DNA of 64,000 nt, taken from NCBI GenBank assembly GCA_963757495.1, contig CAVWRZ010000013.1:9281-73280 (forward strand), written 5' to 3'. The notes beneath the pieces are model-generated. The model did no database searches, was not told the DNA's origin, and saw only the letters and a list, made by a program, of their open reading frames with translations. Of the stretch, positions 52 to 24,240 are shown piece by piece. This DNA comes from an uncultured Alphaproteobacteria bacterium (GTDB lineage: Bacteria > Pseudomonadota > Alphaproteobacteria > Rhodobacterales > Rhodobacteraceae). A program made the translations under genes and the position numbers. How positions within the stretch are numbered: the first letter of the stretch is position 1; every line of letters begins with the position of its first letter.

Positions 52-1992
52 GACGCCCCCGATGCATCGTAGCCGAGCGCCGCGCAGCGGTCGGCGAAGT
101 CGGGGATGGCGGCCAGGATGGCGGCCCTGCGGGCGGCATGCTCGGGCGCGCGGCCGCGTCCGATTCCGGCGGTCTCCAGCGGGCGGAGGCCGCCCAGGGC
201 CCCCTCGGTCATCGAGTTGCGCGGGCGGGCTTTCGCCGCGTCCAGATAGGTACCGAGCGGGCGCGACAGCGGAAGGCCCAGCCGTCCGGGCACCGCAGCA
301 CCCGCCTCGTCAGGCGCGCGCACCATGTCCTCGTAACGCAGGAGGATCACGTCGTCCCCGCCCCGTGCCGCCGTCACGGCATCGTGCAACCGAAGCCAGC
401 GGTCGATCGAGACGTAGTATCCGCGCGTCGCGGGATAAGCCTTGTGCATGGACGTCAGGCAGTCGAGCGGATCGCGGACCATCACGAAGAAGACGGGGCG
501 CGTCCCCCGCGCGGTCGCGGCCTCGCGGATCGCGTCCAGGTACAGCACGTCGTCGGGCAGCTTGGTGACGAGGTGGCGTGCGCCGCGCGGCGGCGCGGCG
601 ATGGCATCGAGGGCAGGCCGCTCCTCTCCCGAGCCGGTCAGCCCATCTACGCAAGCCTCCAGCATGAGCTGGAACAGGGTCGAGCCGCTGCGGGGGAAAC
701 CGCAGATCACCGCGTGGACTTTGGGTGCGGGCCAGCGGGGGCGCCATCGCCTGTGCGCCCCCGCGACGGGCCGAGCCGCCGTGCGCGCCGCATCGTAGAT
801 TGCAGGGTAGCGCAGGACTTCGCGGTGCCAGCTGCGATCGCCGATCTCGCCGGTGCCGGACCAGGGCGCGTCGACGAACCCTTCGATCCCGTCGGCAAGC
901 CCCTCGGGCGTGGGGGGCGTGAAGCGCACATCCGCGCGTCCGCCCAGCAGTTCCTGCATGGCGGGCAGGTCCGTGGACAGGACCGGAACGCCCACCGCCA
1001 GCGCCTCGAGCGGCTTGAGGGGGGTCGTGAGCCGCGCCACGGCCGCTGGGCCGCGCGTGACGACGAAAAGGTCCAGATCGCCCAGGAACGTGGGCATGCG
1101 CGAATAGGGGACGAAACCGGGAAGGTCGACGACGTCCTCCAACCCCAACGCGCGACGCAAGGCCAGCAGGCGCTCCATTTCGGGACCGTCGCCCGCCAGC
1201 GTGGCGCGCAGCCCCCCCGCGAGGTCGGGACGGCGGTCCAGCAGGACGCGCATCGCGCGCAGGAAGCCGTCGAGGTTCTCCATCCTGGCGAAGGTGGTGG
1301 CGTAGCCGATGTGGACCGGCTCCCCCGGGGGGCGCTGCCGCCGCGGGACGGCACCCGGGTGGAACGAGGTCGTGTCGACCGCATTGCGCACGACGTGGAT
1401 ACGGGCCTCGGGCACGCCGCCGGCGGCCAGACGCTCCGCCAGGCCGTCGGCGATGGTGACGACGGCATCGGCTTCGCGCGCGGTCCGCATCTCGAGCGCA
1501 TTGACGCGGTGGCCACGCAGCCGGTCGCGCGGTGCGCCGGTGTCGAGGTTGTAATCGCCGTTGAAGCAGCGCAGCTCGAAGACGAAGGGCAGGCCCAGGC
1601 CGCGCGCCGCGGCCATCGCGGGGCGGGCGGACTGGTGGGGGTGGTGGGCGTGCACGATCTCGGTGCCGGTGTGGCGGAAGATGCTCGAGAGTTCGGCGGC
1701 CATCGCGGGGCCCGTGACGGGGGCGAAGCCGACGGCCGGGCGCTCCCAGCTCCGTGGGCCGTCGAGGCCGTCGGGGCCGTGGCGGGCGGCGCGCAACTGG
1801 CGTTCGGGCGCCCAGGCGGCGGTGCGGAAATCGGGGTCCTGGCCGGCGGCGAAGGTGGGATAGGGCGATATGGCCACCGTCGGCGTCCAGCCCAGCACCG
1901 TCCTCCTGGGCGGAGACGAGCGCGGCCGAGCGGATCGTGTAGCCGTCGATATGGGGCCAGCCATAGTTCAGCACGTGGACGACGTTCACCAT
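48..1992 (-). pseudogene. GT4 glycosyltransferase fused to a C-terminal sulfotransferase domain; one apparent frameshift near 1900 (pseudogene or sequencing error)
   Basis: N-terminus MVNVVHVLNYGWPHIDGYTIRS (ATG 1992, coupled to the upstream stop) is in a different frame from the body (LGWTPTVAISPY...HAHHP...TTPLKPLEALAVGVPVLSTD); C-terminus has ICGFPRSGSTL (5'-PSB loop), VRDPLD and LRYED sulfotransferase motifs. Confidence 0.8.
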
Positions 1993-9499: not shown

Positions 9500-10400
9500 A
9501 CGACGGTCATGAGGGTCACGAGGGTCCTGGGGTCCTTCCCACGGAGACGGAGCGCACGGCACGTTCGGCCGTGTCGTCGTCGTCGTCGTCGATCTCGAGG
9601 GAGGCGTGGTCGGGACAGGGCCGGAGCCGCCTCATGCGGGCCGGGGCGCAGCGGATCGCGACGGCGAGGGGCGGAGATGCCGGGAAGCCGGGCGTGGAGC
9701 CGCGCCTGGAGGTCGTCGAAGACAGGCGCGACATTCGCCTGCCGGATCCCCACCCGCCCGTCCGGCGGCGAGCCCCGCGCGTCCTTCTCGACCGCGTGGA
9801 GCTGCGCGATGCGCGCGATGGCCTCGTCCCCTGCCCGGCCGTGCAGGTCCGCATGCCCGGGAGGGGGGCATGGCCGACCCTCGCCCTGTGGACGGGGGGC
9901 CCTGTGGACGGGGGGCCCTGTGGACGGGGAGCCCTGTGGACGGGGAGCCCTGTGGCACCACCGGTCCGGGACCCGTGGCGAACGGACCTGCGGCGCACAT
10001 GCCGCGCCCGGCGGTCCATCGCGAGGCGATGTCACGGGAGGGGCCCTGCGTCCCGTCCTCCTCGACCGGCCCCCCGGACCGATCGATCGCTGCGCGCCCG
10101 TCTCCGGACCCTCGCGGATGTCGCCGGGGCGGGAGAGGTGCCCGAACCCGGCATGGCAGCGGGCAGGGTATCCGCGCGGCGATGCCCGCAAGGAGGGAGC
10201 CCCGCCGGCCCGGGCGCGCGGGCGAGCCCCGCGCGCCACGCAGCACGACGGGCGGGCGCGGAGCGATGCCGGCCGGCGGTGGGGAACCGCCCCGTTCGCC
10301 ATGGGTCTCGCACCGATGGCGACCACATGGCTCACCGCTCGTCCCGGCCGTACGCCCGGAGCCGCGCCGTCGCCGCCCTGCCGGTGCAGGGGGCCGCCAT
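9500..10400 (-). mobile_element. IS66 family TnpC central remnant, heavily interrupted by short inserts
   Basis: AHVRR, GSA..DEAIARIAQLHAVEKDARG, LEID...TAERAVR.V.VGR; (GTC)6 expansion at ~9573-9590. Confidence 0.7.
9884..9955 (+). repeat. Tandem repeat, 4.5 copies of a 16-bp unit CCCTGTGGACGGGG(G/A)G
   Basis: Units start at 9884, 9900, 9916, 9932 and 9948 (partial); no spacers between them. Confidence 0.95.
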
Positions 10401-10459
10401 CTTCACCGGGGTATCGTCCATTGCCCGGCGGGCGATCGCGCGGCGATCTGCCGAACGGG

Positions 10460-11491
10460 CGGCAGGGATCCTGCGCGGGTCGATGCGGCCACCGCACCGC
10501 GCGCCGTGCGCGAGTATCTCGACACCTTGGATGAGGCCGCCTTCGGCGCGGCCTCGGAGGTAGCGCCGAAGTTCACCTCCTTCTCGGATCCTGCCAGCCA
10601 GTGCCTCTCGGGACATTGCTGTGCAATGCCCTGACGGTAGTAGACCGCGGCGCGCAAGGGTGAGCCGATGGAGCGCCAATGGTCCGAGCGACATTGGCGA
10701 ACGCCTTCTTCGCCTATTCGACGCACTATCTGATCGATACCGACCACGCTATGATCGTCGATGTCGAGGCGACCCGGTCGATCAGACAGGCCGAAGTCGG
10801 ATCCGTCCGGACGATGCTGGACCGGGTCAGGGCCACGTTCGATCTGCATCCGGAGCGTATCATCGCGGACACGGCATATGGGTCCGGCCCGATGTTGGAC
10901 TGGCTGGTGGAGCGGAAGATCGCGCCGCATATCCCGGTCATTGACAAGGCAGGCCGCACGGACGGCACCTGGTCCCGAACCGACTTTGCGTGGGACGCGA
11001 AGAACAACCAATACGTTTACCCGGAAGGCGAACCTCTCAAGCAATTCCGCCGCAACTACTCGGACTCGAAACGCGGCCCGACTGACAAGGGTATCGCGAA
11101 ATATCGTCTGCCAGGCCTGCCCACCTAAGCCGAGGTGCTGTCCGAACGCAGATGCCCGCAAGATCACTCGCGAAGAGCACGAAGACGCCCGCCAGGTCGC
11201 CCGCGACATTTCAAGGCTGACTCGTACGTCACCTCGATGCGGCTCCGAAAGAAGGTCGAGATGCTCTTCGCCCATCTCAAGCGCATCCTGTGCCTGGGAC
11301 GACTCCGATCACGCGGACCGAACGGCGCAAACGACGAATTCCTCCTCGCTGCAACCGCCCAGAACCTCCGCAAACTGGCCAAGATGTTCCCCGCCCAGCA
11401 ACGGCCGAAGCAAGGCTGATATCAAAGGCGCTCGCGCCCCGTCGGCACGTCACTTTCTGCACAAGCAGCATGCCCTATTTTCCACAGGATC
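10460..11491 (+). mobile_element. IS1182 family transposase pseudogene (5'-truncated)
   Basis: APRAVREYLDTLDEAAFGAAS..PKFTS.SDPASQ, AFFAYS.HYLIDTDHA.IVDVEATRSIRQAEV, IADTAYGS, RKKVEMLFAHLKRIL.LGRLR.RGP.GA.DEFLLAATAQNLRKLAK. Confidence 0.88.
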
Positions 11492-11817
11492 GGCCGTTTT
11501 CTGCCCTTCCCGCTTTGTATCCAGTCTTCTCCAGCGAGCCTTCAAGGGAAGCTACCAAGGCTTCAATGCTATCGCGCTGGCTATCACCAAGGACAGCGCG
11601 GAGCCCATTTTCGTTGGAAATATTCTGCGTGCGGGTGTTGGCGTCGAAAAGAAGGCAGCGGCGGCCAATGCCAACAGGTCTCGGCCAATCCCACGAAACC
11701 TTGTTATTTCAATAGGTAGACTAGTGTTTTCCGATATTCAAAAAAATCTTTTGACAGGGGTGCGCAAGTAAAACCGCCGGCTTGCGCCCTCTTATGCCCC
11801 ATAGGCAGGAGGTCGTC

Positions 11818-11894
11818 TGGCGGGCCCAGAAGGATTCGAACCCTCGACCTGCCGATTAGAAGTCGGCTGCTCTATCCAGCTGAGCTATGGGCCC
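11818..11894 (-). tRNA. tRNA-Arg (anticodon UCU)
   Basis: Reverse complement GGGCCCATAGCTCAGCTGGATAGAGCAGCCGACTTCTAATCGGCAGGTCGAGGGTTCGAATCCTTCTGGGCCCGCCA folds as a cloverleaf; loop CTTCTAA, GTTCGAATC T-loop, encoded CCA. Confidence 0.97.
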
Positions 11895-11934
11895 CCGCCC
11901 CCGTGCATGCCGCGAACCTCCCCCCGGGCGCAAG

Positions 11935-13254
11935 TCACAGATGCCCGCCCACCAGCTCCGCCACGTCCACCCGCGCGCCCAGTCGCGACGCCAGCAGGAA
12001 CATGCCCCCTACCTTGCGCTGCAGGTAGAGCACGTCGATGGGCACCGGCGGCGGCACGAAGCCCGACCGCGCCAGCGCCTCCCCCTCCGCCTGCAACCGC
12101 ACGGGCAGGTCTGTGCCGGCGAAATCGAAGCCACCGGGCGCGCGCAGGGCGTCGAACACCATCTCCATCATCCGCTTCAGCTGTGCTCTGTGCCCGTCGC
12201 TCAGCGTCTCCGGCAGCATCCCCAGCCGCCCCGCCGCCGCCTCCGCCCCGCCCATGTCGCCGTCGAGCCCCGCACGCAACAGCCGTCGATACTCACCCGT
12301 CACCTCCACCGAAATCTCCCGCGTGGCCCCGAAGTCCAGCAGCACGATCCGCCCCGTTCCGGCCTGCCAGCGGTAGTTGGCGAAGTTCGGATCGGTTTGC
12401 ATCACGCCCCAGCCGAAGGCCTCGCGCAGCGTCAGGTCGATCAGGTCGCGCGCCACCCGGTCGCGCACTTCCTGCGCTTCCTCCGCCACCGCCTCGATCG
12501 GCGCACCCTCCAGATAGGTCATCGCCAGGATCTCGCCCGTCGACCAGTCCGGCTGCACCTGCGGCACCACGAACCGCGCATCCCCGTCCAGTAGCGCGCC
12601 GAACCGCGCCAGGCCCCGCGCCTCCGCCGCGTAATCCGTCTCCTCGTGCAGCTGCACCCGAGCCTGCTCCAGATACGGTGCCAGATCGAACCCCTTCGGC
12701 AGCAGCCCGGAGAGCCGGATCAGCGCTCCGACGTTCGCCACGTCGCTGTCGATGCTCGCCGCCACGCCCGGATATTGCACCTTGATGGCGAGGTCGCGCC
12801 CATCCCGCGTCCGCGCCCGGTGCACCTGCCCGATGCTCGCCGCCGCCATGGGCCGTACGTCGAAACTCTCGAAGCGCGTCAGCCATCCCGCGGGCCAGTT
12901 CGATGCCAGTACCTTCTTGAGCTGCGCCGGCGGCATCACATGCGCCCCGTCGCGCAGCCGCGCCATGATCCCCGTAAGCTCCGGCGGCAACAGGTCGCCC
13001 GTGTCCATCGACACCAGCTGCCCGATCTTCATCGCCGCCCCCCGCATCTGCGCGAGCTGCTCGGTCACGCGGGAGACGTTGGCCGGAGTCAGCAGCAGCC
13101 CGCGCAGGTCCGGCCGCTCGCCCCGCCCCAGCTGCCGCGCCCCGCCCAGCGCCATGCGCCCGGCGACGCCCGCGCCGAGCCCGCCCATACGCGCCAGACG
13201 GTTCAGCCGACCGGACGGGACGGCCAGCGCTCGCCGTTCGCGCTCGTCGCTCAT
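11935..13254 (-). CDS. ABC1/AarF/UbiB family atypical kinase
   Basis: MRGAAMKIGQ, AAASIGQVHRA, LAIKVQYPGV, ETDY, MQTDPNFANY and LLDFGA motifs. Confidence 0.9.
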   Translation of the reverse strand: MSDERERRALAVPSGRLNRLARMGGLGAGVAGRMALGGARQLGRGERPDLRGLLLTPANVSRVTEQLAQMRGAAMKIGQLVSMDTGDLLPPELTGIMARLRDGAHVMPPAQLKKVLASNWPAGWLTRFESFDVRPMAAASIGQVHRARTRDGRDLAIKVQYPGVAASIDSDVANVGALIRLSGLLPKGFDLAPYLEQARVQLHEETDYAAEARGLARFGALLDGDARFVVPQVQPDWSTGEILAMTYLEGAPIEAVAEEAQEVRDRVARDLIDLTLREAFGWGVMQTDPNFANYRWQAGTGRIVLLDFGATREISVEVTGEYRRLLRAGLDGDMGGAEAAAGRLGMLPETLSDGHRAQLKRMMEMVFDALRAPGGFDFAGTDLPVRLQAEGEALARSGFVPPPVPIDVLYLQRKVGGMFLLASRLGARVDVAELVGGHL

Positions 13255-13766
13255 TCGTAGAGGCGCAGGTCCGAGACGGCCACGTCGGCGTGGAACTCCC
13301 GCCCGATGGCGATGATCCCCAGCCGCCGCAGCCCGGCCGCGTCGAAACTCGCATCGGTCCGGTGCGGCTCCAGCTCGGAGAAGGGCACGCGGACGGTCGT
13401 CCATTCCGCGGGAGCCTCGAAGGAGTACCGGAAGCTCTGCCACGGCCGGGTCAGCACGTCCGTCCGCGCGCGCAGTTCGTAGGTCTCGCCGTTGCCGTGG
13501 ACGTCGAACGTCACGCCGGTGGCCGTCGTCGCATCCGCTCCCACGTCGAAGTTCATCTGCACGAACCCGCCGTCGTTCTTCAAAGAGACGTCGCCGGTCA
13601 GCCGCGTGGCCTCGCGCCCGTCCACGACCTCCCGGTCGATACGGCCGGTGGAGACGCCGCCCATCACGGTGTCGGCCTCGAAGCGCCAGTCGGGGGTCAG
13701 GGTCATCGCATCCTCCGCGAGGGCAGGTGTGGTCAGCAGCAGGCTCAGGATCGTGGCTTTCAACAT
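13251..13766 (-). CDS. CIA30/NDUFAF1 family protein with predicted signal peptide
   Basis: DTVMGGVSTG, GDVSLKNDGGFVQ, WTTVRVPFSEL motifs; N-terminal MLKATILSLLLTTPALA. Confidence 0.85.
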   Translation of the reverse strand: MLKATILSLLLTTPALAEDAMTLTPDWRFEADTVMGGVSTGRIDREVVDGREATRLTGDVSLKNDGGFVQMNFDVGADATTATGVTFDVHGNGETYELRARTDVLTRPWQSFRYSFEAPAEWTTVRVPFSELEPHRTDASFDAAGLRRLGIIAIGREFHADVAVSDLRLYE

Positions 13767-13848
13767 GGTTGGGGATCTAGCGCACCGCGACACCGCGCCC
13801 AGCCCGGCCGCGTTGCGGCCGCCCGGCGCAGCGCCTAAGCCGCGCCCC

Positions 13849-15027
13849 ATGCGATACGATGCGATCATCCTCGGCGCGGGCGGCGCGGGCCTGATGTGCG
13901 CCGCCGTGGCCGGACGGGCGGGCGCGCGGGTGCTGGTGATCGACCACGCGCCGAAGGCAGGCAAGAAGATCCTGATCTCCGGCGGCGGGCGCTGCAACTT
14001 CACCAATACCGGCACCGAGCCGGGTCGCTTCCTGTCCGAAAACCCGCATTTCGCCAAATCCGCGCTCGGCCGCTACTCCCCGTGGGATTTCCTCGATCTG
14101 ATGCAGGCGCACGGCATCGCCTGGCACGAGAAGACGCTGGGGCAGCTCTTCTGCGACGGCTCCGCGCGGCAGATCGTGGCGATGCTCCTCGACGAATGTG
14201 CGCGGGGCGGGGCCGAGATCCGGCTGTCCACCCAGATCGGCGAGGTCGCCCATGCCGACGGTCTCTACCGCGTCGCCGGGGCCAGCGCGCCGACCCTCGT
14301 CGTCGCCACCGGCGGGCCGTCGATCCCGAAGATGGGCGCGACCGGCGTTGCCTACGACATCGCGCGGCAGTTCGGCCTGAACGTCGTCCCCCCGCGCCCC
14401 GCCCTCGTCCCCTTCACGCTGGGTGACGGCGATGCGGCCTTCCGCGACATCTCCGGGGTCGCCGTCCCCGCCACCGCACGCACCGGCTCCACGTCGTTCG
14501 AGGAAGCCGCGCTCTTCACCCACCGCGGCCTCTCCGGCCCCGCCGTCCTTCAGATCTCCTCCTACTGGTCGCGGGGCGATCCGGTTGCGCTGAATGTGAT
14601 GCCTAACGCCGCCGCCCACTTGCGAGACGCCCGCCGCCGGATGCCCCGCTCGGGCCTCAAGGCCGCGCTGACCGAATGCCTGCCCAGGCGTCTGGCCGAG
14701 GTTCTGGCCGACCGCATCGCCCTGCCCACCGAACTGGGCAATGCCTCCGACGCCACGCTCGACGAGGTAGCCAGCCAACTCACCGCGCTCACCTTCCACC
14801 CGACCGGCACCGAAGGCTACGCCAAGGCCGAGGTCACCGCCGGCGGCATCGACACCGCGGCGCTTTCGTCGACCACGATGGAAGCCCGCGCCGTCCCCGG
14901 CCTCCACGTCATCGGGGAAGCGGTGGACGTGACCGGCTGGCTCGGCGGCTACAACTTCCAGTGGGCCTGGGCCTCGGGCTGGGCCGCCGGCACGGCCATC
15001 GCTGCCCGCCCCGTGCAGCAGCGTTGA
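13849..15027 (+). CDS. HI0933/BaiN family NAD(P)/FAD-dependent oxidoreductase
   Basis: IILGAGGAGL, GKKILISGGGRCNFTN, LFTHRGLSGP, AEVTAGG, GEAVDVTGWLGGYNFQWAWASG. Confidence 0.92.
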   Translation: MRYDAIILGAGGAGLMCAAVAGRAGARVLVIDHAPKAGKKILISGGGRCNFTNTGTEPGRFLSENPHFAKSALGRYSPWDFLDLMQAHGIAWHEKTLGQLFCDGSARQIVAMLLDECARGGAEIRLSTQIGEVAHADGLYRVAGASAPTLVVATGGPSIPKMGATGVAYDIARQFGLNVVPPRPALVPFTLGDGDAAFRDISGVAVPATARTGSTSFEEAALFTHRGLSGPAVLQISSYWSRGDPVALNVMPNAAAHLRDARRRMPRSGLKAALTECLPRRLAEVLADRIALPTELGNASDATLDEVASQLTALTFHPTGTEGYAKAEVTAGGIDTAALSSTTMEARAVPGLHVIGEAVDVTGWLGGYNFQWAWASGWAAGTAIAARPVQQR

Positions 15028-15160
15028 GTTGCGGCCAGACTGACGATACAAGCTAACCCTTCGAGTCCCAGGAATTTAACCTTTGACAGAGGATCCGGCC
15101 AACTCCGTCTCAAGATCCGGCCAGTCGATCTCCTATTCATTTTCGCAACGTGACAAGAAC

Positions 15161-15186
15161 AAAAAGGGCCCACCGAAGTGAGCCCT
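15161..15186 (-). terminator. Possible intrinsic terminator (minus strand) downstream of the IS1595 gene
   Basis: AAAAA-GGGCCCAC-CGAA-GTGAGCCC: imperfect hairpin with an A-tract on its left. Confidence 0.45.
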
Positions 15187-15227
15187 GAGGCGGGTTGATC
15201 ATTTTCTGGCTGATGACGAGAACCCGC

Positions 15228-17830
15228 TTATCCACAAGACGAAGCGGAGGCATTAGGCCAACGAAGCCCGTATTCCTTTGATCGGCGCATCTGCTTTCCG
15301 ACGGCCCCTCGAAGCAGGGACCGCGTCTGCATGACCACCGGGACCGGTTTCCAGATCGTCGTGGGATTTCCCGTTAGGTTCCCGAATTTCGTGGTCCATT
15401 GCATGTAGATCTCGCCTGCCGGATCGCGGTCGTTCCAGCGCCAGATGATCTCGTCGAGGTAGCGCTGGAGGTGCTTGCGGCCGAGATCGTGATAGACGCC
15501 GACCAATGCGCGGGCCATCTGCGAGATCACCGCCTCGGCCGTGTTCGCGTGAGCGCCAGTCTCGGGATTTGCGTATTCGTTCTGGCTCTGGATGACGGAT
15601 CGATGCGAGGCCATCGTCTTCCCGAAGCCGATGTAGCTCGTGCTTCCGTCCGACATCAGCCTTGTCGTCTGCGGATCGATCCATTCCTTGAGAACGGCCT
15701 CGAGAGCGGGCCCTTGATCGCCCGGAACGACTCTTGCGCGCGCCTGTCCGTCCCGTGAGGCGGCCACGAAGACGATCGGCTTCCCACTGCCCTTTCCCCT
15801 TGGATTATTGACTTCTGCAAGAGATTTCGGCGCACCGCCGATGAAGGCGTCGTCGGTCTCGACGATATCATCCAGCGGCAGCGGATCGCATGTGCTGGGC
15901 TCCGCCCGGTCGGCCCCTGACCGCTCCACTGGAGCGTTCACCGCATTGTGGACAGGGCCTCACTCCATCATCTCGCGTATGGCATGACCTATGTGGAGTG
16001 CCCCCCGTTTCACCGGACAGTCCGGCTGGGGTTGAGCGTTTCGCGGAACTCGGCGGGCGAGCGCATGCGGAGCGCGGAATGCGGATGGACGGTGTTGTAG
16101 TCTGTGATCCATCCGGCGACGAGATCGAGCACCGTGGCGGCGTCGGGCAAGGGCGTGACGCGGACGTAGTCGCGCTTGAGGGTCTTGACGAAGGACTCGC
16201 TCATTCCGTTGCTTTCGGGCGACCGGACCGGCGTGAGGCAGGGGGTGAGGCCGAGGGCCGTGGCGAAGTCGCGCTCGCCATCGTCCTCGGACCGATGGCG
16301 GACGACGGCTCGCCCTTGGCGGTGTAGCAGCTGCCGTTGTCCATTGCCCGGCAGGGTATCGCGCAGCGATGTCCCGAGAGGGGGACAGATGCTCGACCCG
16401 GTGCGGGGCGCGACCGGTGCCGAAGCGGCGCTCGACGGCGGCGAGCATCATGTCGCGGATGTCGGAGCCGGAGATGCCCGCGCCCGCCACCGCGACGTGG
16501 GCTGCGATCTCGCGGTCGAAGGCGTCGATGAGCGAGCCTTGTCCGCCATCGGTCCGAGAACGATGGTCGAGCGCGACGCGGACCTTCTCGCCGTTCCGAC
16601 AGGCGATCTCGAGGGCGTCGGAACACCGGCGCAGGTTCGATGCCATCACCGCGACGCGGCCGTCGTGGACACGGCCCTCGCGTCGTCCGGTGGAGCGCTC
16701 CAGCGTCAGACCATGCTGGCCGAGAATGCGCGAGCCACGCGCTTGCGGTTGACCGGTTCCAGTCCTGAAGCCCGCCGCTCCCGGTTCAGCAGCGCCGTGA
16801 GGCGGCGGTGGCCGTAGGTCGGACGCTGGTCGACGAGGCGGCGGATGGCCGGCAGCAGCTCGACGTCGGCGGTCTTGCGATAGGAGCCGCGAGGCTTCGA
16901 CGCCCCGGACGCCCGCACGTGGAGCTGGGACCGGCTCACCTCCAGGGCCTCCGGCGCACAGCGGCTCACCGGGGAACCGTCCCTGGGCGGCGACGGCAGA
17001 TGCCACGTCTGTTCTTTGCCCGTGCCTGGTCCAGCGCCTCGCGCAGGATCTCGTTCTCCATCGTCTTGCGGCCAGGCATGCGCTCCAGGGCGCGGACCTT
17101 GTCCTCGAGCTTGGCAGGCCTCGGACGCGCCCACCACCGGTTCGTTCGACCCCACGGCCATCGCTCCCCCCTCGTCCATGAGGCGCCGCCAACGGAACAG
17201 CAGGTTCGGAGCCACGCCGCCCGCGCCGCGCCACGGCGGAGACGGACTCCCCGGAACCGTTCGTCGGCTTACGCGGCCCCATAGGGGCCACGGTCCTCCT
17301 CACCCTCGATGATGCGCAGCGTCCGTTGCGCCGGCCAGTAGCGGCGTCCGGCAAGGCCGGTGATCACCTCGACACGGGGATGCGTCTCGCCCGGCATAAG
17401 CATGTCCTCAAGCACAGGCTCGAGCCTTCCATGATCATGCCGGACTGTCCGGTCGAAATGGGGGGCAGTCCACCATCTTCCACGCAGTCTTCTGGTTCAC
17501 CCCCGGCAGCCGTCCCATCACGACCAGCGAAATACCCTTGGATGACGTCAGCACGGGAAACATCGCGGTGATCCAGATCCGAAGGTCGAGTTTCGTAGCG
17601 TGAAGGGGCGTCTTCGTCGTGATCGTGAACTGGCCGCGGCATCCCGCTTCGCCACACTGGTAGAGCCCGGGTCGGGATGACTTCCCCGCCAACTTGATCG
17701 AACGAACACTCCCGCAATTCGGACGATACCGCCCGTCAGCCCAGATGAGGCCTTTAAGAAAGACGCGCGCGTGATGCCCGTTCGGCATCTTGCGCCACAC
17801 GTCCTGGATGGATCTGAACTCGTCGATCAC
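15228..17830 (-). mobile_element. IS1595 family transposase pseudogene, split by a nested IS3-family element
   Basis: N-part: zinc-ribbon-like LYQC..CRGQFT..TKTPLHATKL...TSSKGIS...NQKTAWKM; resumes after the insertion as GHAIREMM; C-part IVETDDAFIGG, LMSDG, H.SVI.S..EY, ANTAE, GVYH....KHLQRYLDE..WRWN. Confidence 0.85.
15994..17472 (-). mobile_element. IS3 family (IS2-group) insertion sequence, degenerate, with terminal inverted repeats
   Basis: IRs TGGACTGCCCCCCATTTCGACCGGACAGTCCGG (from 17472, minus) and TGGAGTGCCCCCCGTTTCACCGGACAGTCCGG (from 15994); OrfA VAPNLLFRWRRLM..GRKTMENEILREAL; OrfB YGHRRLTALLNR, IDAFDRE, DNGSCYTA, ESNGMSESFVKTLKRDY, YNTVHPHSALRMRSP. Confidence 0.92.
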
Positions 17831-18001
17831 GCCACATCTCGCCAGCAATGTGAGGGGACCGGCGATATTGGCTATCCTGGCCCAAAACGAAGCCGGCTCG
17901 CCATTTCCACGCAGAATTGCCAGAAGACATTCAAGAACCGTGAACAATTGGACCGTTATTTGTATCCGCTTCTTCTGCTGGATAAGCGGGAACGAAAACC
18001 A

Positions 18002-18700
18002 CTAGGGGATCGCGCTCCCCACGCCGTCCGGCCCCGATCTCACCGAGACAGCAGTCAGCCCGACTCTACCCGGCCGCCGGCTCATCCCGCACATCATGTC
18101 ATCACCAGGAATCCGAGAGACGAAGTCTGGCCGTCGTCCCGGAATTCCGGAGAACCGTCCCGGAAATTGGCGCAGCCGTGATGTCGGAAGACCCCGCTCT
18201 GCAAACCGGAAGATCCTCGATCCAAGTGAGAAACGCGTCAAGATGCCGACGCGAAAGACAACTTTCCGGACCGTACCGGGGTCCTCGACCGGTACGAGCG
18301 GCTTGAGCAGCCCCGCTCCATACAGGGACCGGACCCGGCCCTTCGAGTCACCGATGGCCTTCGGTACATCCTCGAGCAGTACGGCGTCGGCGAGATCAGC
18401 GCAGAAGGTTTCCATCTCCTCGGCCGGAAAGACCAATCTTCCACTCTCGGCGTCCGACGCTCCAGTCGGGACGAGGCCCAGTTTTCTGGAGAAGCCGGGA
18501 GAGGTGCCTGCGATCCATGCCGGTCTCAGCCGACAGTGTAACAATGGAATGAAACTTGCGCCGGATCATCTCGACCCCAAGACCCACTTCGCCGCCATCG
18601 ACGGCGGAGTGCTCGACGGTGTGGGCGCGAAGCACGTCCCGGATCGGACCCGGGTCGATCATGTTGGCCCCCCAGTCCAGCCCGTCGTAGAGCCGCCCGT
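18002..18700 (-). pseudogene. C-terminal fragment of a probable TniQ-family (Tn7/Tn5053-like) protein, truncated by an IS1182 remnant
   Basis: YGRLYDGL...DPGPIRDVLRAH...RRKFHSIVTLSAETGMDRRHLSRLL resembles C-terminal regions of alphaproteobacterial TniQ proteins as recalled; lower GC than flanks; N-terminal TniQ domain absent. Confidence 0.45.
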
Positions 18701-18744
18701 ACGTTGCAAGGGGGCCAGCCTGGACCGCCGTGGCCGTGGCGGCG

Positions 18745-19465
18745 GTGAGCCACGTCGGCTTCGGCCCGTGACGGACCTCGACGCGATCGATCATCGTCCG
18801 CGCGGTGCCGATCCCGGCCTGCCGGATGGACCGGGTCGCCTCCACGTCCACGATGACGGCGTCGTCGGGGTCGACGATGACGGCGTCTTCGGGGCCGACG
18901 AGGCAGTCGTGCGGGCAGGTGAACACCGCCGGACCCTTCCGGGCGGCCGTCTGTCGGCTGGCGGGACCCGGGTGCGACACGGACCTGGACCTGGGCCTGG
19001 GCTTGGGCCTGGGCCTGGCCGGGCCGGCCGCGCCGAACGCGTTCGCGCATTCTGTCGTGCCGATGGCGTTCATGCGCTCACCGTCGAGGGGCTCGAGAGA
19101 CCCGCGGACCGCGCGCGGTGCTTCATAGGGGTCGATGGCACCCGCATCCCACCTCGCCCGGGCGCTCGAGCTCGAGGCCTGTCCACGTCCGCCATCCCTC
19201 CCGGGACCTCGCTGGCGCAGGGCCCTGCCGGGCAATGGATCAGACTTGCATCGACGGCGAACCCGGCACCGCCGACCAGACCCTCCTCGATGCAGCGCGT
19301 CACGACGCCCCCGAAGAGCAGCCGCAGCAGATCGCCGTCGCGAAATCCTCCCCGCCCCCCGGAATCGAGCGAACCAGGAGACTTGCCCCATCGCAACAGG
19401 GACCTCTGCGACGAAATGGACCCAGAGCGACCGATGTCGCGATCCGCATGAATGGTCGCTTCCGG
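18745..19465 (-). mobile_element. IS1182 family remnant (copy 1), inverted relative to the copy at 22.5-24.2 kb
   Basis: FRDGDLLRLLFGGVVTRCIEEGLVGGAGFAVDASLI...IVDVEATRSIRQAGIGTARTMIDR; near-identical to the reverse complement of 22510-22670 plus 23015-23540. Confidence 0.85.
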
Positions 19466-19596
19466 GATGCTGAACGTCAGGCGGGCAACATCGCTGCGGC
19501 CGGCTCGTCCATAAGCATCGCCTTCATCCCGGCCGCGCGCGGCGGACCTGATCTCTATACGGAGACAGTGCCCATCTCCCGCCCACAGGCGGCATG

Positions 19597-21414
19597 TCAT
19601 CGGAGGATCGCGGGGCCGAGGATGGCGAAGAGGCCGAGTGCACCGAGCGCCGAGCGCCGCCAGATGGGGCCAGGCGCGATTACGGCGCGGCTTACTGCCA
19701 TGAGACCGCCTGCGAGGAGCACGAAAGCCACTGCCGCGGCACCCGGCTCTTCCGCAGCCCGCAGTATCGCGGGCTGGGCGATCATGCCGAGCGGAATGAG
19801 GTAGAGCCCGAGACCGAGCGCCATCGCGGTGAGCGCCACGCGCAGCCAGTTCTCGCCCACCATGCCCGCGGCGATGAAGACCGCACCGCAGACGGGGGGG
19901 GTTATGGTTGAGAGAAGCGCGAACCAGAAGACGAAGAGGTGCGCTTGAAGAGGCTCGAGACCGAGCCGCTCCAGGGCCGGGCCGGCGACGGAGATGCAGA
20001 TCACGTAGGCGGCCGTGGTGGGCACCTCCATCCCGAGGAGGAGGCAGGCAAGCGCGGTCAGCAGAAGCGCGGGCCAGAGCGAACCGCCCGAGCCCGCGAG
20101 GATGGCTGACGTCATCTTGATCCCAAGGCCTGTGATTCCGAGGACGCCGATCACGATCGATGCGCATAGGATGATCGCTCCGATCATCGCCACCTGCCGT
20201 CCCGCCGAGAGGCATGCGGCGGAGAGGCGTCCGGGGAAGCGGGCCAACGCAAGGCCCTGTCCGTCGAATGCGAGCAACGCGGTGCCCGCCGCGATGGCCG
20301 CGACGGCGGCGTATTGCGGCGTGAAGCCGGCGGCGAACATCATCGCCAGAAGGACGGTGAAGGGCACGAGGAAGAAGGCCGAGGTCACGATTACGTCGCG
20401 CCGCGCAGGCCGGTCGGCCTCGGCCAACCCTCTCAGATCGTGTCGGGCGGCGAAACCGTCGATGCCGGTCCATACCGCCCAGAAGTAGAGCAGCGCCGGC
20501 AGGATCGCGGCGGCCATGATACCGGTGTAGGGCACTCCCGTCAGCTCGACCATGACGAAGGCACCCGCGCCCATCAGGGGCGGCATGATCTGACCACCGG
20601 AGGACGCGACCGCCTCGACGGCCGCCGCGAGCCGTTTGGGGTATCCCAGACGCGTCATGGTCGGCAGCGTGACGGCACCGGTGGAGGCGACGTTGGCTGA
20701 CGCGCTCCCCGATATGGAGCCGAAGAGCGCCGAGGAGAGGACCGAGACCTTGGCCGCGCCGCCCCTGGCGCGCCCTGCCGCCGCGGCCGCGACATTCATG
20801 AAACCCGCTCCCGCTTCACCGGCGTTGAGGATCGCACCGAAGATGACGAAGATCGCCACGACCCCGACCGAAACACCCGTCAGAGAGCCCCATATTCCGC
20901 CCTCGGAGATGGTCAGCGTGCCGAGGAACGAAGCGAGCGGAAGGCCCGCGTGGCCGAACGTGCCGGGGATGTGCTGGCCCAGGAGACCGTAGGCGAGCGC
21001 TGCGGCAGCGACGGCCGGTAGCGGCCATCCGATCATCCGGCGCGCACCCTCCAGCACCAGCGCGAGGAGGAGGACCGCAAGTGCGACCTGACCCGGACCT
21101 TCGAGGAAACCGTACTGATTCCGCAAGGCGACATGGTTCCAGGCGATCCAGAGGCAGGCGGCGATGCCCCCGCCCGAAAGCGCATAGCCCGCCGTGGCCT
21201 GCGCCTGCGTCGTGGCCGCAGCGACGAAGACCCAAGGTAGCAGAAGCGCCATGTGCAACGGCCGCGCGACCAGGTTGGGCACGAGCCCGTAGAGGATCAG
21301 GCCCAGATGCGCCGCGACCGTCAGAGCGCCGAGTGCGACCCAAACGGCCCGTCGCCCACGGGGATCGGCGGGTGCGAGGGGCGCGGCGGGAACCGTTCGG
21401 AGGGGACTATCCAT
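19597..21414 (-). CDS. TRAP transporter fused permease (4TM/12TM fusion type)
   Basis: Many TM helices; AAKVSVLSSALFGSISGSASANV, EAVASSGGQIMPPLMGAGAF, LGMEVPTTAAY, ITPPV motifs. Confidence 0.92.
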   Translation of the reverse strand: MDSPLRTVPAAPLAPADPRGRRAVWVALGALTVAAHLGLILYGLVPNLVARPLHMALLLPWVFVAAATTQAQATAGYALSGGGIAACLWIAWNHVALRNQYGFLEGPGQVALAVLLLALVLEGARRMIGWPLPAVAAAALAYGLLGQHIPGTFGHAGLPLASFLGTLTISEGGIWGSLTGVSVGVVAIFVIFGAILNAGEAGAGFMNVAAAAAGRARGGAAKVSVLSSALFGSISGSASANVASTGAVTLPTMTRLGYPKRLAAAVEAVASSGGQIMPPLMGAGAFVMVELTGVPYTGIMAAAILPALLYFWAVWTGIDGFAARHDLRGLAEADRPARRDVIVTSAFFLVPFTVLLAMMFAAGFTPQYAAVAAIAAGTALLAFDGQGLALARFPGRLSAACLSAGRQVAMIGAIILCASIVIGVLGITGLGIKMTSAILAGSGGSLWPALLLTALACLLLGMEVPTTAAYVICISVAGPALERLGLEPLQAHLFVFWFALLSTITPPVCGAVFIAAGMVGENWLRVALTAMALGLGLYLIPLGMIAQPAILRAAEEPGAAAVAFVLLAGGLMAVSRAVIAPGPIWRRSALGALGLFAILGPAILR

Positions 21415-21468
21415 CTCGCTCGCCTGCGCGAAGGAGTGGCCGGGGCGAGCGCTGCCCCGGCGGCGCGA

Positions 21469-22413
21469 TCAATTGACCGGCACAGCCACGCCGATCTCTT
21501 CGTAGTAGCGCAGGGCACCGGGATGGACCTGCGTCGTCACGGCACCCATCATGTCGGGCGTCACGCCGTCCCACCACGCGGCCGATCCGCCAAGGGTCTC
21601 CTTGTTCTCCCAGAAGGCCTTGGTGAGGTCGTAGGCCGTATCGTCCGCCATCGCCGCGGTGGCGAACGCGACGACGGGCAACGAGGTCGTCACGACGTCC
21701 GTGTCCTGTCCCGCGTAGGTGCCGGCGGGGATGACGAGGCGGGTGCGCCCGGTCTCCTCGACCTGCGCGTCGGTCATCGACAGGATCGTCACGCCGGTCG
21801 AGGCGGCGGCCTCGATCACGTTCGGCGCGGGGTAGGAGCCGGCGGTCACGAACCCGTCGATCTGCCCGTTCTTGAGGGCGGCGACGGCATTCGACAGTTC
21901 CGCGTCCGCGACGTTCACGCTGTCGGCGACGCCGAAGAGGCCGAGGTACTTCTCGCCTTCGGTCGCGCCGAAGCTGCCGGAGCCGAGCAGGATCGTCTTG
22001 CCGGCCATGTCCTCGAAGGTCTCGATGCCACTGTCGGAACCGACGACGAAGTGCATCGTGAGCGACGGGATCGGAAAGAGCGCGCGGATGCCGTCGAACG
22101 CTTCGCTGCCCTTGTCCTCGAACGGACCGCTGGCGGATTGCGCGGCGGCGATCAGGGCCGGGGGGGTGGTGAAGACGTAGTCGGCCCCGCGCGCCCGCAC
22201 TTCCATGACGTTCTGAACGCTGCCCTGACTTTCCTCGACCGTGACGGCGGCAATGCCCTTGAGGGCTTCCGAAAGCTGGACGCCCATCTGGAAATAGGCG
22301 GTGCCGGCCTTGGCCGACTTGTAGGTGATCCGTTCCTGCGCGGCGGCGGGCAGCGCTATGGCGGCAAGTGCCGCGGCAGTGACTGCGGTTGCGATGGTGG
22401 CCCTGATGGTCAT
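21469..22413 (-). CDS. TAXI family TRAP solute-binding protein
   Basis: Signal peptide ending in AAA; ESQGSVQN, GSGSFG, ALKNGQIDG, HPGALRYYEE motifs; upstream of the fused permease. Confidence 0.9.
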   Translation of the reverse strand: MTIRATIATAVTAAALAAIALPAAAQERITYKSAKAGTAYFQMGVQLSEALKGIAAVTVEESQGSVQNVMEVRARGADYVFTTPPALIAAAQSASGPFEDKGSEAFDGIRALFPIPSLTMHFVVGSDSGIETFEDMAGKTILLGSGSFGATEGEKYLGLFGVADSVNVADAELSNAVAALKNGQIDGFVTAGSYPAPNVIEAAASTGVTILSMTDAQVEETGRTRLVIPAGTYAGQDTDVVTTSLPVVAFATAAMADDTAYDLTKAFWENKETLGGSAAWWDGVTPDMMGAVTTQVHPGALRYYEEIGVAVPVN

Positions 22414-22509
22414 GGCGTATTCTCCCTATTTGGGCCGACGGTGACAGCCAGGCCACCCATGTCAAGGTTTGGCCGCCGAGAAGATCGACACGCGGGAGTG
22501 AGCTGCGGG

Positions 22510-24240
22510 CCGTGGGATCACCGGAAGCGGCCATTCATGCGGATCGCGACATCGGTCGCTCTGGGCCCATTTCGTCGCAGAGGTCCCTGTTGCGATGGGG
22601 CAAGTCTCCTGGTTCGCTCGATTTCGGGGGGGGCGGGGAGGATTTCGCGGCGAGGGGCGGGCGGACGGCTCCGGCGACGCGGTTCCACGACTTCGATCCG
22701 GAGGCGCAGGTGCCGGGCGACCGTCCATTGCGTCGGGTCGGCCGGTTCCTCGACAGGGAGCGGATGCGCGCGCGGCCCGCACCGTTCCGGAAGCCACATC
22801 GGCCGCCCCTCGGTCGACCCCGGCGACCCCGGGCCGATCGTGCGGATGCTGCTGGCCGGATACCCGACGGGCATCCGCTCCGAGCGCCGGCGGTGCGACG
22901 AGGTGCATCCGAACCCGGCGCATCGGCGCATCGGACCGTCTCGGCCTCGACGGACGTGTCCCCGATCGCCCGACCGATCCGGAAATGCGGGCATGGGCCC
23001 CAGGTTCCGCGACGGCGATCTGCTGCGGCTGCTCTTCGGGGGCGTCGTGGACGCGCTGCATCGAGGAGGGTCTGGTCGGCGGTGCCGGGTTCGCCGTCGA
23101 TGCAAGTCTGATCCATTGCCCGGCAGGGCCCTGCGCCAGCGAGGTCCCGGGAGGGATGGCGGACGTGGACAGGCCTCGAGCTCGAGCGCCCGGGCGAGGT
23201 GGGATGCGGGTGCCATCGACCCCTATGAAGCACCGCGCGCGGCCCGCGGGTCTCTCGAGCCCCTCGACGGTGAGCGCATGAACGCCATCGGCACGACAGA
23301 ATGCGCGAACGCGTTCGGCGCGGCCGGCCCGGCCCAGGCCCAAGCCTAGGCCCAGGCCCAGGTCCAGGCCCGTGTCGCACCCGGGTCCCGCCAGCCGACA
23401 GACGGCCGCCCGGAAGGGTCCGGCGGTGTTCACCTGCCCGCACGACTGCCTCGTCGGCCCCGAAGACGCCGTCATCGTCGACCCCGACGACGCCGTCATC
23501 GTGGACGTGGAGGCGACCCGGTCCATCCGGCAGGCCGGGATCGTCCCCTTCGTTCCGGTTTTCCATTGCCCAACAGGACATCGCGTGCCGCGATGCCCCG
23601 AGAGGGGACAAGTCCAAGCGAACCGACGGCACCCGGTCGCGGTCGGACTTCGAGTGGGACGAGCAGAACGACCGCGACGTCTGCCCCGGAGGCCACGAGC
23701 TGCTTGGGTACCGGCGCAACCACTCCGATCCGACGACGGAAGGACCGTCGGCCGGGCGGCAGAAGTACCGGGCCCTCGCATCCGACTGCAGGGCGTGCCC
23801 GTCGAAGCTCCGCTGCTGCCCGAAGGCCGCCGCGAGGGACATCACCCGCGAGGAGCACGAGGACGTCCGGGGCGTCGCCCGGGAGTGCGTGGCCTCCGAG
23901 GTCTGCAGGAAGATCGCAGGCCCCGGGCGCAGACAGGTCGAGATGCTCTTGGGGCACCTCGCGCGCATCCTCGGGCTCGGCCGCCTGCGCTTGCGGGGGC
24001 CATGCGGTGCCGGGGACGAGTTCACCCTCGCCGCCACCGCCCGGAACCTCCGGACGCCCGCGAAGCTCAGGCCGCGGACGACCCCAGCGGCGGCCACGAG
24101 GTGATCCGAGAGGCCGGAAAGGGCGAAACGACCGACCTGGCCGGGCCCGGGCCCGAGGCCGAACCCGCGACGAGCCCCCAGATGGGCCAAACCACCGCCT
24201 CGAGCAGCCGACTTTCTTTACGAGATGGGCTTGAAGCAGA
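22510..24240 (+). mobile_element. IS1182 family transposase pseudogene (copy 2, near full length, degenerate)
   Basis: FHDFD.EA.VP.D, GRPSVDP...MLLAGY..GIRSERR.C.EVH, FRDGDLLR, DKSKRTDG..SRSDFEWDE, VEMLLGHL.RILGLGRLRLRGPCGAGDEF. Confidence 0.85.

Follow-up and report, generated by a model that had tools for sequence, protein, structure and literature searches.

In the window, the whole 64,000-nt stretch of Rhodobacteraceae DNA analysed in this study, short hairpin units of one family, here called family B, lie inside transposase genes and remnants of insertion sequences (IS) (Table 1). A sequence-only reading of this DNA had claimed seven copies of a second micro-element family, separate from the first; all seven copies were found, and the separateness of the family was supported. 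The 9943 and 23270/19043 copies are degenerate, each with three mismatches to the box CGCCATCGGTCCGAG, and the 5' arm of the 9943..9983 copy is amplified in tandem upstream (~9880-9945). The host of the 10294..10335 unit gives a weak match to PF03050, and two more copies of this unit lie on contigs C4 and C16. Immediately 3' of the 10660..10702 unit, a DDE_Tnp_1 match begins; an empty homologue of this site is present at G000:C1:19676-19917. The 16532..16572 unit has a net gain of 36 nt relative to the empty site in an IS3 of Roseomonas sp. OT10, and its in-frame readthrough is LDHRSRTDGGQGS.

Table 1. Family-B units in the window, with positions counted from its first letter
Position	Strand	Class and sequence	Host	Remarks
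9943..9983	+	Degenerate; GGGAGCC CTGTGG CACCACCGGTCCGGG ACCCGTGGCGA AC		Fold z = 0.19, decayed
10294..10335	-	GT..AC; GTGAGCC ATGTGGT CGCCATCGGTGCGAG ACCCATGGCGA AC	IS66-like remnant	Long-hairpin fold z = -2.8
10660..10702	+	GT..AC	IS1182/IS5-type transposase gene, sense	Replaces GACCG of aag gGA CCG gcc
16273..16313	-	GC..GC	IS3 OrfB, sense to transposase	Between DNGSCYTAK and DFATAL
16532..16572	+	GC..GC, GGTCGA tail	IS3 OrfB (also host of 16273..16313), antisense	
19041..19081	-	Degenerate	IS1182 remnant	Inverted duplicate of the 23270 copy
23270..23310	+	Degenerate; GTGAGCG CATGAA CGCCATCGGCACGAC AGAATGCGCGA AC	IS1182 remnant	Replaces ~5 nt of gat GAG GCC gcc

The whole family-B unit, 41-43 nt in length, is one long hairpin with a stem of ~13 bp and a loop of 15 nt, in the order xy-GAGCC-stem-CGCCAYYGGTYCGAG-stem-GGCGA-y'x'. 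From the outside in, it consists of two variable outer base pairs (xy/y'x'), a tandem G.A/A.G mismatch where GAGCC stands opposite GGCGA, and a variable paired stem of ~9 bp that closes the conserved loop. In the long hairpin, 91.9% of cells were paired, the covariation was 0.433 compared with 0.129 after shuffling (0 of 500 shuffles were as high), and both-sided changes occurred in 7 of 11 pairs. The loop-closing pair was formed at 127 of 149 sites (57 expected), and the outer pairs were formed at 141 (-2/+2; 81 expected) and 136 (-1/+1; 104 expected) of 149; from position 3 outward, no pairing was found at the 149 sites. Outer-pair classes among these sites included GT..AC (44), GC..GC (31), AT..AT (23), and TC..GG (22). 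The GAGACC/GGTCGA variant has an extra A-T pair, which is compensating. The reverse strand reads CGTCGCC in the Watson-Crick-headed variant only. The sequence-only reading had put the copies in the right places, but the conserved paired unit reaches 2 nt 3' of GGCGA, where y'x' pairs with xy. The stem that it proposed, with CGCCATCG and CGATGGCG enclosing a GTCCGAG loop, is barely backed by covariation and represents an alternative fold in some copies. By family-wide covariation, the segment that it had left as N5-7 forms the 5' side of the stem and pairs with the 3' arm, and the loop is the entire 15-nt box.

A profile search with nhmmer, using a profile built from six window copies, found 44 family-B copies in the 3.28-Mb genome; these fall into 23 flank clusters and occupy 23 or more independent sites. 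The box pattern matched 37 times in this genome, compared with 0-1 matches for the reversed control, and of the 34 genomes of the genus scanned with it, 26 carry family B. Outside the genus, the family was found in more than 119 contigs, the majority from Rhodobacterales; 46 viral contigs carried it. GAGCC and GCGA are invariant in the wide-scan set because the search pattern, in which both are fixed, prescribes them. Many stem subfamilies occur side by side in one genome, and seven different sites in different genera share identical cores of 37-38 nt. A literature search on the box sequence and on descriptions of such elements returned nothing relevant, and family B is apparently a hairpin DNA element without earlier description.

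Every identifiable host of family B was a transposase or phage gene. The transposase genes belong to IS3, IS481, IS66, IS1182, Tn3, IS21, and IS256; units occur in either orientation relative to the host gene, and ~80% of the insertions in IS are frameshifting. Family B also lies in intact phage capsid (625-aa ORF), terminase GpA, and portal genes, in frame every time, where the ORF stays open across the unit and reads it as an insert of 12-13 codons (G-E-P-x-S-A-x-G-P/S-R). The earlier view that such elements are confined to IS debris was thus too narrow. Heuristics based on GC3 periodicity and the longest ORF mostly picked shadow frames as the host frame, which were hence Pfam-negative. Several unrelated micro-element families are common to the hosts of family B. 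Sites shared by homologous ISs were hit repeatedly, and the copies of multi-copy IS481 elements are recombination mosaics. An IS of Paracoccus rhizosphaerae carries four inserts, whereas the annotated 319-aa IS481 transposase of Sagittula stellata carries none.

The same position of the motif in diverged IS3, IS66, and IS481 lineages might suggest that it is native to its host IS families and conserved in them. This has next to no probability, however, as the motif is present in unrelated IS families and in phage genes, and the idea is refuted by empty sites: in intact homologues that lack the motif, the protein alignment is continuous at that place. Since such intact empty homologues exist, family B is, as judged from these alignments, an insertion foreign to its host IS. 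The host range would also agree with defence, in which a host- or MGE-encoded system plants hairpins in invading mobile DNA to disable transposons or phages; the high share of frameshifting insertions in IS and the unrelated micro-element families borne by the same hosts point in this direction. We nevertheless consider defence quite improbable. Neutral survival and hitch-hiking on ISs predict an equal distribution, the copies in phage genes keep the reading frame and do no harm, no associated gene is known, and unit-bearing ISs multiplied nonetheless.

Removal of the unit had been said to leave the host about one codon short. This shortfall is real and general, as indicated by 30 filled/empty homologue pairs, and both comparisons proposed inside the window hold: aag g[..]ac gcc compared with aag gga ccg gcc at 10660, and gac g[..]ac gcg ttc compared with gat gag gcc gcc ttc at 23270. 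In the 30 pairs, 5 nt (17 pairs), 4 nt (12 pairs), or 6 nt (one pair) of the target were replaced, the exact bases lost resting on diverged homologues because the flanks of the best empty site are just 88.8% identical; none of the 30 pairs showed a target-site duplication. In the empty-site consensus, the left edge is R (30/30), the second replaced position is C (22/30), and the right edge is G (24/30), and the target motif is R/N-C-A-N-(N)/G, where slashes mark the edges of the replaced segment. Each insertion brings a net gain of 36-39 nt, a multiple of three in only 6 of 30 pairs, which equals the core length or 1 nt less (2 nt less in one pair). No recent insertion polymorphism was seen, and the sole polymorphic site among near-identical IS copies lies within a recombinant patch. 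The sequence-only reading had offered replacement or mis-set boundaries as alternatives. In fact, 4-5 target nt are truly replaced and the boundaries were also off at the 3' end; even the boundaries first drawn give a loss of 2-3 nt, and therefore replacement-type insertion holds.

GCGAGC was considered as a target-site duplication and rejected, being a direct end repeat in the GC..GC class only and mismatching the empty sites. Copying of the outer pairs from the target, in the manner of P nucleotides, was rejected as well, as the end dinucleotide matched xy or y'x' in just 2 of 18 empty sites. Conservative site-specific recombination across a 4-nt overlap should add at least the core plus 4 nt; the observed gains are smaller, and this model was rejected too.

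An element acting at the level of RNA or translation, either a mini-intron excised from the mRNA with religation or a coding gap hopped by the ribosome, would keep the host genes functional. The GTGAG head after AAG/G does resemble a splice donor, multi-unit IS copies persist (8-12 dispersed copies), and substitutions between copies appear mostly synonymous in alignments judged by eye and uncounted. However, units run both with and against the host gene, the net gains are seldom multiples of three, phage genes simply translate the unit in frame, and Rfam covariance models gave no match at E <= 1 in the window region and six relatives' loci. Every fixed excision rule tested on the empty sites failed to restore the frame because 4-5 target nt are lost, and the orientation was mixed. 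With net gains that follow no frame rule and with both orientations present, family B is therefore not intron-like, and we regard this explanation as highly improbable. Translational bypass elements (T4 gene 60, mitochondrial byps) have matching take-off and landing codons and occur in the sense orientation only; in family B, by contrast, the end repeats that would provide such codons match in the GC..GC class only, and antisense copies are common.

End-joining or templated repair typically produces such a loss of 4-6 target bases with no duplication, which could suggest capture rather than transposition: a small hairpin nucleic acid present in abundance (retron-like ssDNA, small-RNA cDNA, or a replication by-product) would be caught in double-strand breaks or stalled forks, with a few bases lost at repair. 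The loop resembles a tRNA T-arm (GGTTCGAGCC), and the PF01797 searches found no transposase in four copy-rich genomes, which would fit such an origin. It is rather unlikely, though, given that the loss is highly uniform (29 of 30 pairs lack 4 or 5 nt), the target motif is defined, homologous ISs were hit at the same site repeatedly, and the many stem subfamilies per genome would require many source genes.

The reading that we favour, with some confidence, makes family B a miniature mobile DNA element, non-autonomous and consisting of a single 41-43-nt hairpin. It bears little resemblance to paired double-stranded terminal repeats. Because the stem varies in sequence but stays paired around a conserved loop, a trans-acting enzyme may recognise the unit as a folded single strand, reading the loop and the GA motif. 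Such an enzyme would cut the target strand twice, 4-5 nt apart, and the hairpin would be swapped in; resident hairpin copies could undergo the same exchange. Insertions would then persist where harm is small. Those in transposase genes may stand in any frame, mostly frameshifting, and be carried along with IS multiplication or transfer, and those in phage genes would survive only as in-frame inserts. The Y1 HUH transposase domain (PF01797) had no match in the copy-rich genomes G000, G053 (86 boxes), G052, and G009; among the genomes examined, it was present in G054 only, plus a fragment in G049. HUH Y1 or RAYT was rejected as the mobiliser since it is missing from these four genomes. We know of no characterised transposase, recombinase, or retroelement that matches the overwrite signature. 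More tentatively, family B might move by a novel cut-and-replace reaction, probably shared with the co-resident families A and C, in which a loop-reading enzyme cuts out either a resident hairpin or 4-5 nt of target and pastes in the 41-43-nt single-stranded hairpin. If true, no mobile DNA unit known would be smaller than these cut-and-replace units, which would live as hyperparasites on insertion sequences and phages.

If our reading is right, a major order of marine and soil bacteria carries a widespread class of mobile hairpins of 41-43 nt, which disable transposases, decorate phage proteins, and insert by overwriting a few bases. This would add a parasite-on-parasite layer to bacterial mobilome dynamics and account for the broken state of many transposase annotations in Rhodobacterales. 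With its loop conserved and its target motif defined, family B offers a concrete handle in the search for a new DNA-processing enzyme, and spotting the unit during annotation lets interrupted IS and phage genes be read correctly.

Family B shares features with several known systems. Rickettsia palindromic elements (RPEs), reportedly described by Ogata et al. in 2000 (a study cited in PMC3733652), are palindromic selfish repeats inside protein-coding genes that are kept as in-frame extra peptide segments; they are ~100-150 bp long and occur in Rickettsia only. Family B resembles them in lying in frame within otherwise intact phage capsid, terminase, and portal ORFs, but it is much shorter, unrelated in sequence, found mainly in transposase genes regardless of frame, and takes the place of 4-5 target nt. 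MITEs of the TIR type, moved by DDE transposases, carry terminal inverted repeats that are conserved, and their target site is duplicated. Family B is likewise short, non-autonomous, and palindromic overall; its arms, however, covary around an invariant centre, and target bases are lost without duplication. IS200/IS605 elements have two different end hairpins and land 3' of a fixed tetra- or pentanucleotide, with all target bases kept. With these elements and their miniature derivatives (PATEs), family B shares hairpin recognition (presumed for family B), either orientation relative to genes, and no target duplication; it differs in its one unit-wide hairpin, in the loss of 4-5 nt in 29 of 30 pairs, and in that the enzyme is missing from most carrier genomes examined.

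REP/REPIN sequences, associated with a single-copy RAYT gene (Y1 HUH), are 20-40 nt long, extragenic, and often arranged as inverted doublets; they are imperfect palindromes with a 4-5-nt loop, a 6-9-bp stem, and a conserved GTAG or CGTC tag at one end (PMC3733652, PMC3116915). In CGTC REPs, the stem is 8-9 bp (PMC3733652). Family B is similar in size, in its imperfect palindrome, the short conserved motif at the stem foot, its compensating stem subfamilies, and presumed recognition as folded single-stranded DNA. In contrast to REPs, no Y1_Tnp match was found in four copy-rich family-B genomes, the copies are intragenic single units in transposase and phage ORFs, and the hairpin has a conserved 15-nt loop on a ~13-bp stem whose foot sets xy-GAGCC opposite GGCGA-y'x'.

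All seven copies of the hairpin element termed family B that had been claimed from the sequence alone were found in the window. Five of them are well formed, and the conserved 15-nt centre (the box, CGCCANYGGTYCGAG) is decayed in copy 9943 and in the duplicated pair 23270/19043. Searching the 3.28-Mb genome (G000; 17 contigs, with the window at 9281-73280 of contig 13) with a profile derived from the window copies identified 44 copies, which flank clustering resolved into 23 independent sites; the box occurred 37 times in G000 versus 0–1 times for a reversed control. Within the genus, 26 of 34 genomes contained the box, at 0–37 copies per genome. Among the matches listed for a stricter pattern in a collection of species-representative genomes, more than 119 contigs were nearly all from Rhodobacterales (Paracoccus, Rubellimicrobium, Thioclava, Leisingera, Tabrizicola, Mangrovicoccus, and others), with few from elsewhere (Craurococcus, Rhizobium, Sphingobium, and Parvibaculum). 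Paracoccus rhizosphaerae CCM 7904 alone has 86 boxes. The stricter pattern also matched 46 viral contigs.

The anatomy of the element was derived from 149 sites with differing flanks, aligned on the core. The two bases 5' of GAGCC pair with the two bases 3' of GGCGA: the -2/+2 pair was formed in 141 of the 149 sites (81 expected from shuffling) and the -1/+1 pair in 136 (104 expected). The main classes of outer pair were GT..AC (44), GC..GC (31), AT..AT (23), and TC..GG (22), and single-step intermediates such as GC..AC (6) and GT..GC (3) were also seen. Position -3 was a purine in 143 sites and +3 was G in 132, with no pairing from position 3 outward. Thus, the unit is xy-GAGCC-seg1-box-seg1'-GGCGA-y'x', 41–43 nt in length, where xy and y'x' are the outer pairs and seg1 is a 5–7-nt segment; the 3' boundary drawn at GGCGA in the sequence-only reading was 2 nt short.

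GAGCC opposite GGCGA forms a tandem G.A/A.G mismatch and then three G-C pairs, and seg1 pairs with bases 3' of the box. The loop-closing pair was formed in 127 of 149 sites versus 57 expected (GC 68, CG 39, AT 12, TA 6). In a gap-free subset of 28 sites, 91.9% of the cells of this long hairpin were paired, 7 of 11 pairs had changed on both sides, and the covariation score was 0.433, reached by none of 500 shuffles, versus 0.129 after shuffling. The stem proposed earlier, formed by box positions 1–9 and the 3' arm, was 87% paired, nearly all through invariant columns; its covariation was 0.068 versus 0.045, and its two variable box positions were unpaired in 12 and 9 of the 28 sites. Both folds are energetically accessible: three window copies favour the earlier stem, and the long hairpin is preferred by two, as well as by the commonest "master" sequence. 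In one variant, GAGACC...GGTCGA, the helix has gained an A on one strand and a compensating T on the other. Another related form, headed by GTTGCC or GGTCGCC and also present in intergenic DNA of relatives, has ordinary pairs in place of the mismatch. Because GAGCC and GCGA were fixed in the pattern of the wide scans, the invariance of these motifs in that set is partly due to the search; this does not touch the outer pairs, the R and G that flank them, or the stem covariation.

Empty homologues were available for many sites: two IS66 paralogues in G000 lack the units present at C8:18115 and C8:18389, the unit of window 16532 is missing from the Roseomonas sp. OT10 IS3, and that of window 10660 from an IS1182 copy on contig 1. 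Sagittula stellata E-37 has an annotated, intact IS481 transposase gene (319 aa) that is free of all four family-B units and of an unrelated fifth insert of 42 nt; in P. rhizosphaerae, the 1.13-kb IS481 (8 copies 97–100% identical and 4 copies at 93%) is interrupted by all five. Target loss was measured as the distance between exact 8-mer anchors in 30 filled/empty pairs with flanks 78–89% identical (one further pair was aberrant). Seventeen pairs had lost 5 nt to the unit, twelve 4 nt, and one 6 nt; target duplication was never seen in these pairs. The earlier impression that hosts are left one codon short holds, as the boundaries then used give a loss of 2–3 nt. Units of the TC..GG class always replaced 4 nt and those of the GC..GC class always 5 nt. 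The left edge of the empty site was a purine in 30 of 30, the second replaced position was C in 22, often followed by A, and the right edge was G in 24, giving the consensus R|N-C-A-N-(N)|G. Neither xy nor y'x' resembles the replaced bases, indicating that the outer pairs arrive with the element.

An RNA-level element was rejected on mixed orientation, frame, target loss, and Rfam, where no family matched family B. Units can point either way along the host gene; the window IS3 holds one sense and one antisense unit, and antisense copies also occur in IS256, IS66, IS1182, and Tn3 hosts. The net gain per insertion was 36–39 nt, a multiple of three in only 6 of 30, and because 4–5 target bases are gone, excision by any fixed rule would not restore the frame.

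In G000, where several sites matched no host, and in the broader collection, every identifiable non-viral host gene encodes a transposase. IS3, IS481, IS66, IS1182/IS5, and Tn3 hosts are backed by Pfam or annotation; the IS21, IS256, and IS5 hosts were identified by their conserved peptides. The Tn3-family remnant extends the host range beyond the classical IS families. Viral contigs are a second niche: here the unit lies inside ORFs for the phage major capsid protein, large terminase subunit GpA, and lambda-type portal protein; all five independent phage-gene sites with a frame read are sense and in the same phase, encoding G-E-P-x-S-A-x-G-P/S-R.... A further viral site, common to 18 viral contigs, falls in an ORF that has no Pfam match. 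So dispensable transposase genes keep insertions in any frame, whereas genes that must work keep only in-frame, apparently tolerated peptide inserts. An IS481 copy on Thioclava sp. 'Guangxiensis' plasmid p2 shares insertion site 3 alone with Paracoccus and is a pseudogene, as a TGG-to-TGA change introduces a stop in its conserved HPW motif.

Coordinates of family-B units and other features
Feature	Location	Strand or orientation	Details
Two family-B units	G000:C16:302450 and 302845 (L046)	antisense	In Tn3-family transposase remnant; PF01526, E = 3e-44
16-nt tandem repeat	window 9880-9945		Unit CCCTGTGGACGGGGRG, about 4 repeats, directly upstream of copy 9943
Intact tRNA gene	window 11821-11894	-	Rfam 70 bits; between IS debris and ABC1/UbiB-type kinase gene
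Family A	window 16337-16384, 10400-10450, 19230-19290, many more		About 45 nt; consensus about TCCAYTGCCCGGCAGGGYATCGCGCAGCGATGTCCCGAGAGGGG
Third hairpin insert	L184:2010-2060		42 nt, AGTTTGGAGGGTCAGAAAACAGTCCGGTGGCCTGTTTTCCCGAC; P. rhizosphaerae IS481, between HPW and TNGQVERMNR
Intergenic repeats	L016, L026, L031, L043, ~1470-1545		About 75 nt; same-genus relatives; common left arm CTTGCCCGAAATACCTCGGGGG
IS481 stop codon	L204, ~800-810		Thioclava plasmid p2

Several other repeats were also seen. The 16-nt tandem unit corresponds to the family-B 5' arm (GGGAGCC-CTGTGG), indicating that the 5' half of the hairpin was tandemly amplified; the paralogues on contigs C4 and C2 have a different copy number. 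Family A is a distinct hairpin micro-element with 236 loose blastn matches in G000, commoner than family B across the genus, and its copy at 16337 lies between the two family-B copies in the window IS3. The third hairpin, unrelated to either, has taken the place of about 4 nt in the IS481 gene and is absent from intact Sagittula and Thioclava homologues. In the intergenic repeats, the left arm precedes a hairpin (GGTCGCC...GGCGACG) with a fully Watson-Crick stem and the same 15-nt box in its loop; family B may have a REP-like sister in these repeats. The IS cluster beside the tRNA gene may mark an island integrated there.

Identical cores of 37–38 nt recur at seven separate sites, in different genera. 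Where diverged ISs carry units at homologous positions, these are either much more alike than their flanks (100% vs 80%, 97.5% vs 85%) or of differing stem subfamily or outer-pair class, which points to hot spots hit repeatedly or to exchange of a resident unit for another. Insertion polymorphism between near-identical flanks was not found, and the single polymorphic site among P. rhizosphaerae IS481 copies lies within a recombinant patch. ISs already carrying several frameshifting units reached 8–12 dispersed copies; these were presumably mobilised in trans.

The arms are variable and the centre conserved, the reverse of a DDE-transposase MITE. The pattern fits an element that is recognised as a folded single strand, by its loop and G.A motif. 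Conservative site-specific recombination, IS200/IS605 insertion, and staggered-cut transposition were considered, and none fits a uniform 4–5-nt loss between R and G without duplication. One target strand may instead be cut twice and the hairpin ligated in, with replication then fixing it. The obvious candidate enzyme would be a Y1 HUH transposase or a RAYT; neither had a match in G000 or in three other copy-rich genomes.

A search of a library of papers for the box sequence and for comparable element descriptions returned nothing. Family B lacks the tested defining features of REP-RAYT systems, IS200/IS605-derived elements, and TIR-MITEs. Its nearest functional counterparts are REP/REPIN elements and Rickettsia palindromic elements (RPEs), the in-frame genic palindromes that, like family B, are kept as in-frame peptide inserts in genes that must work.
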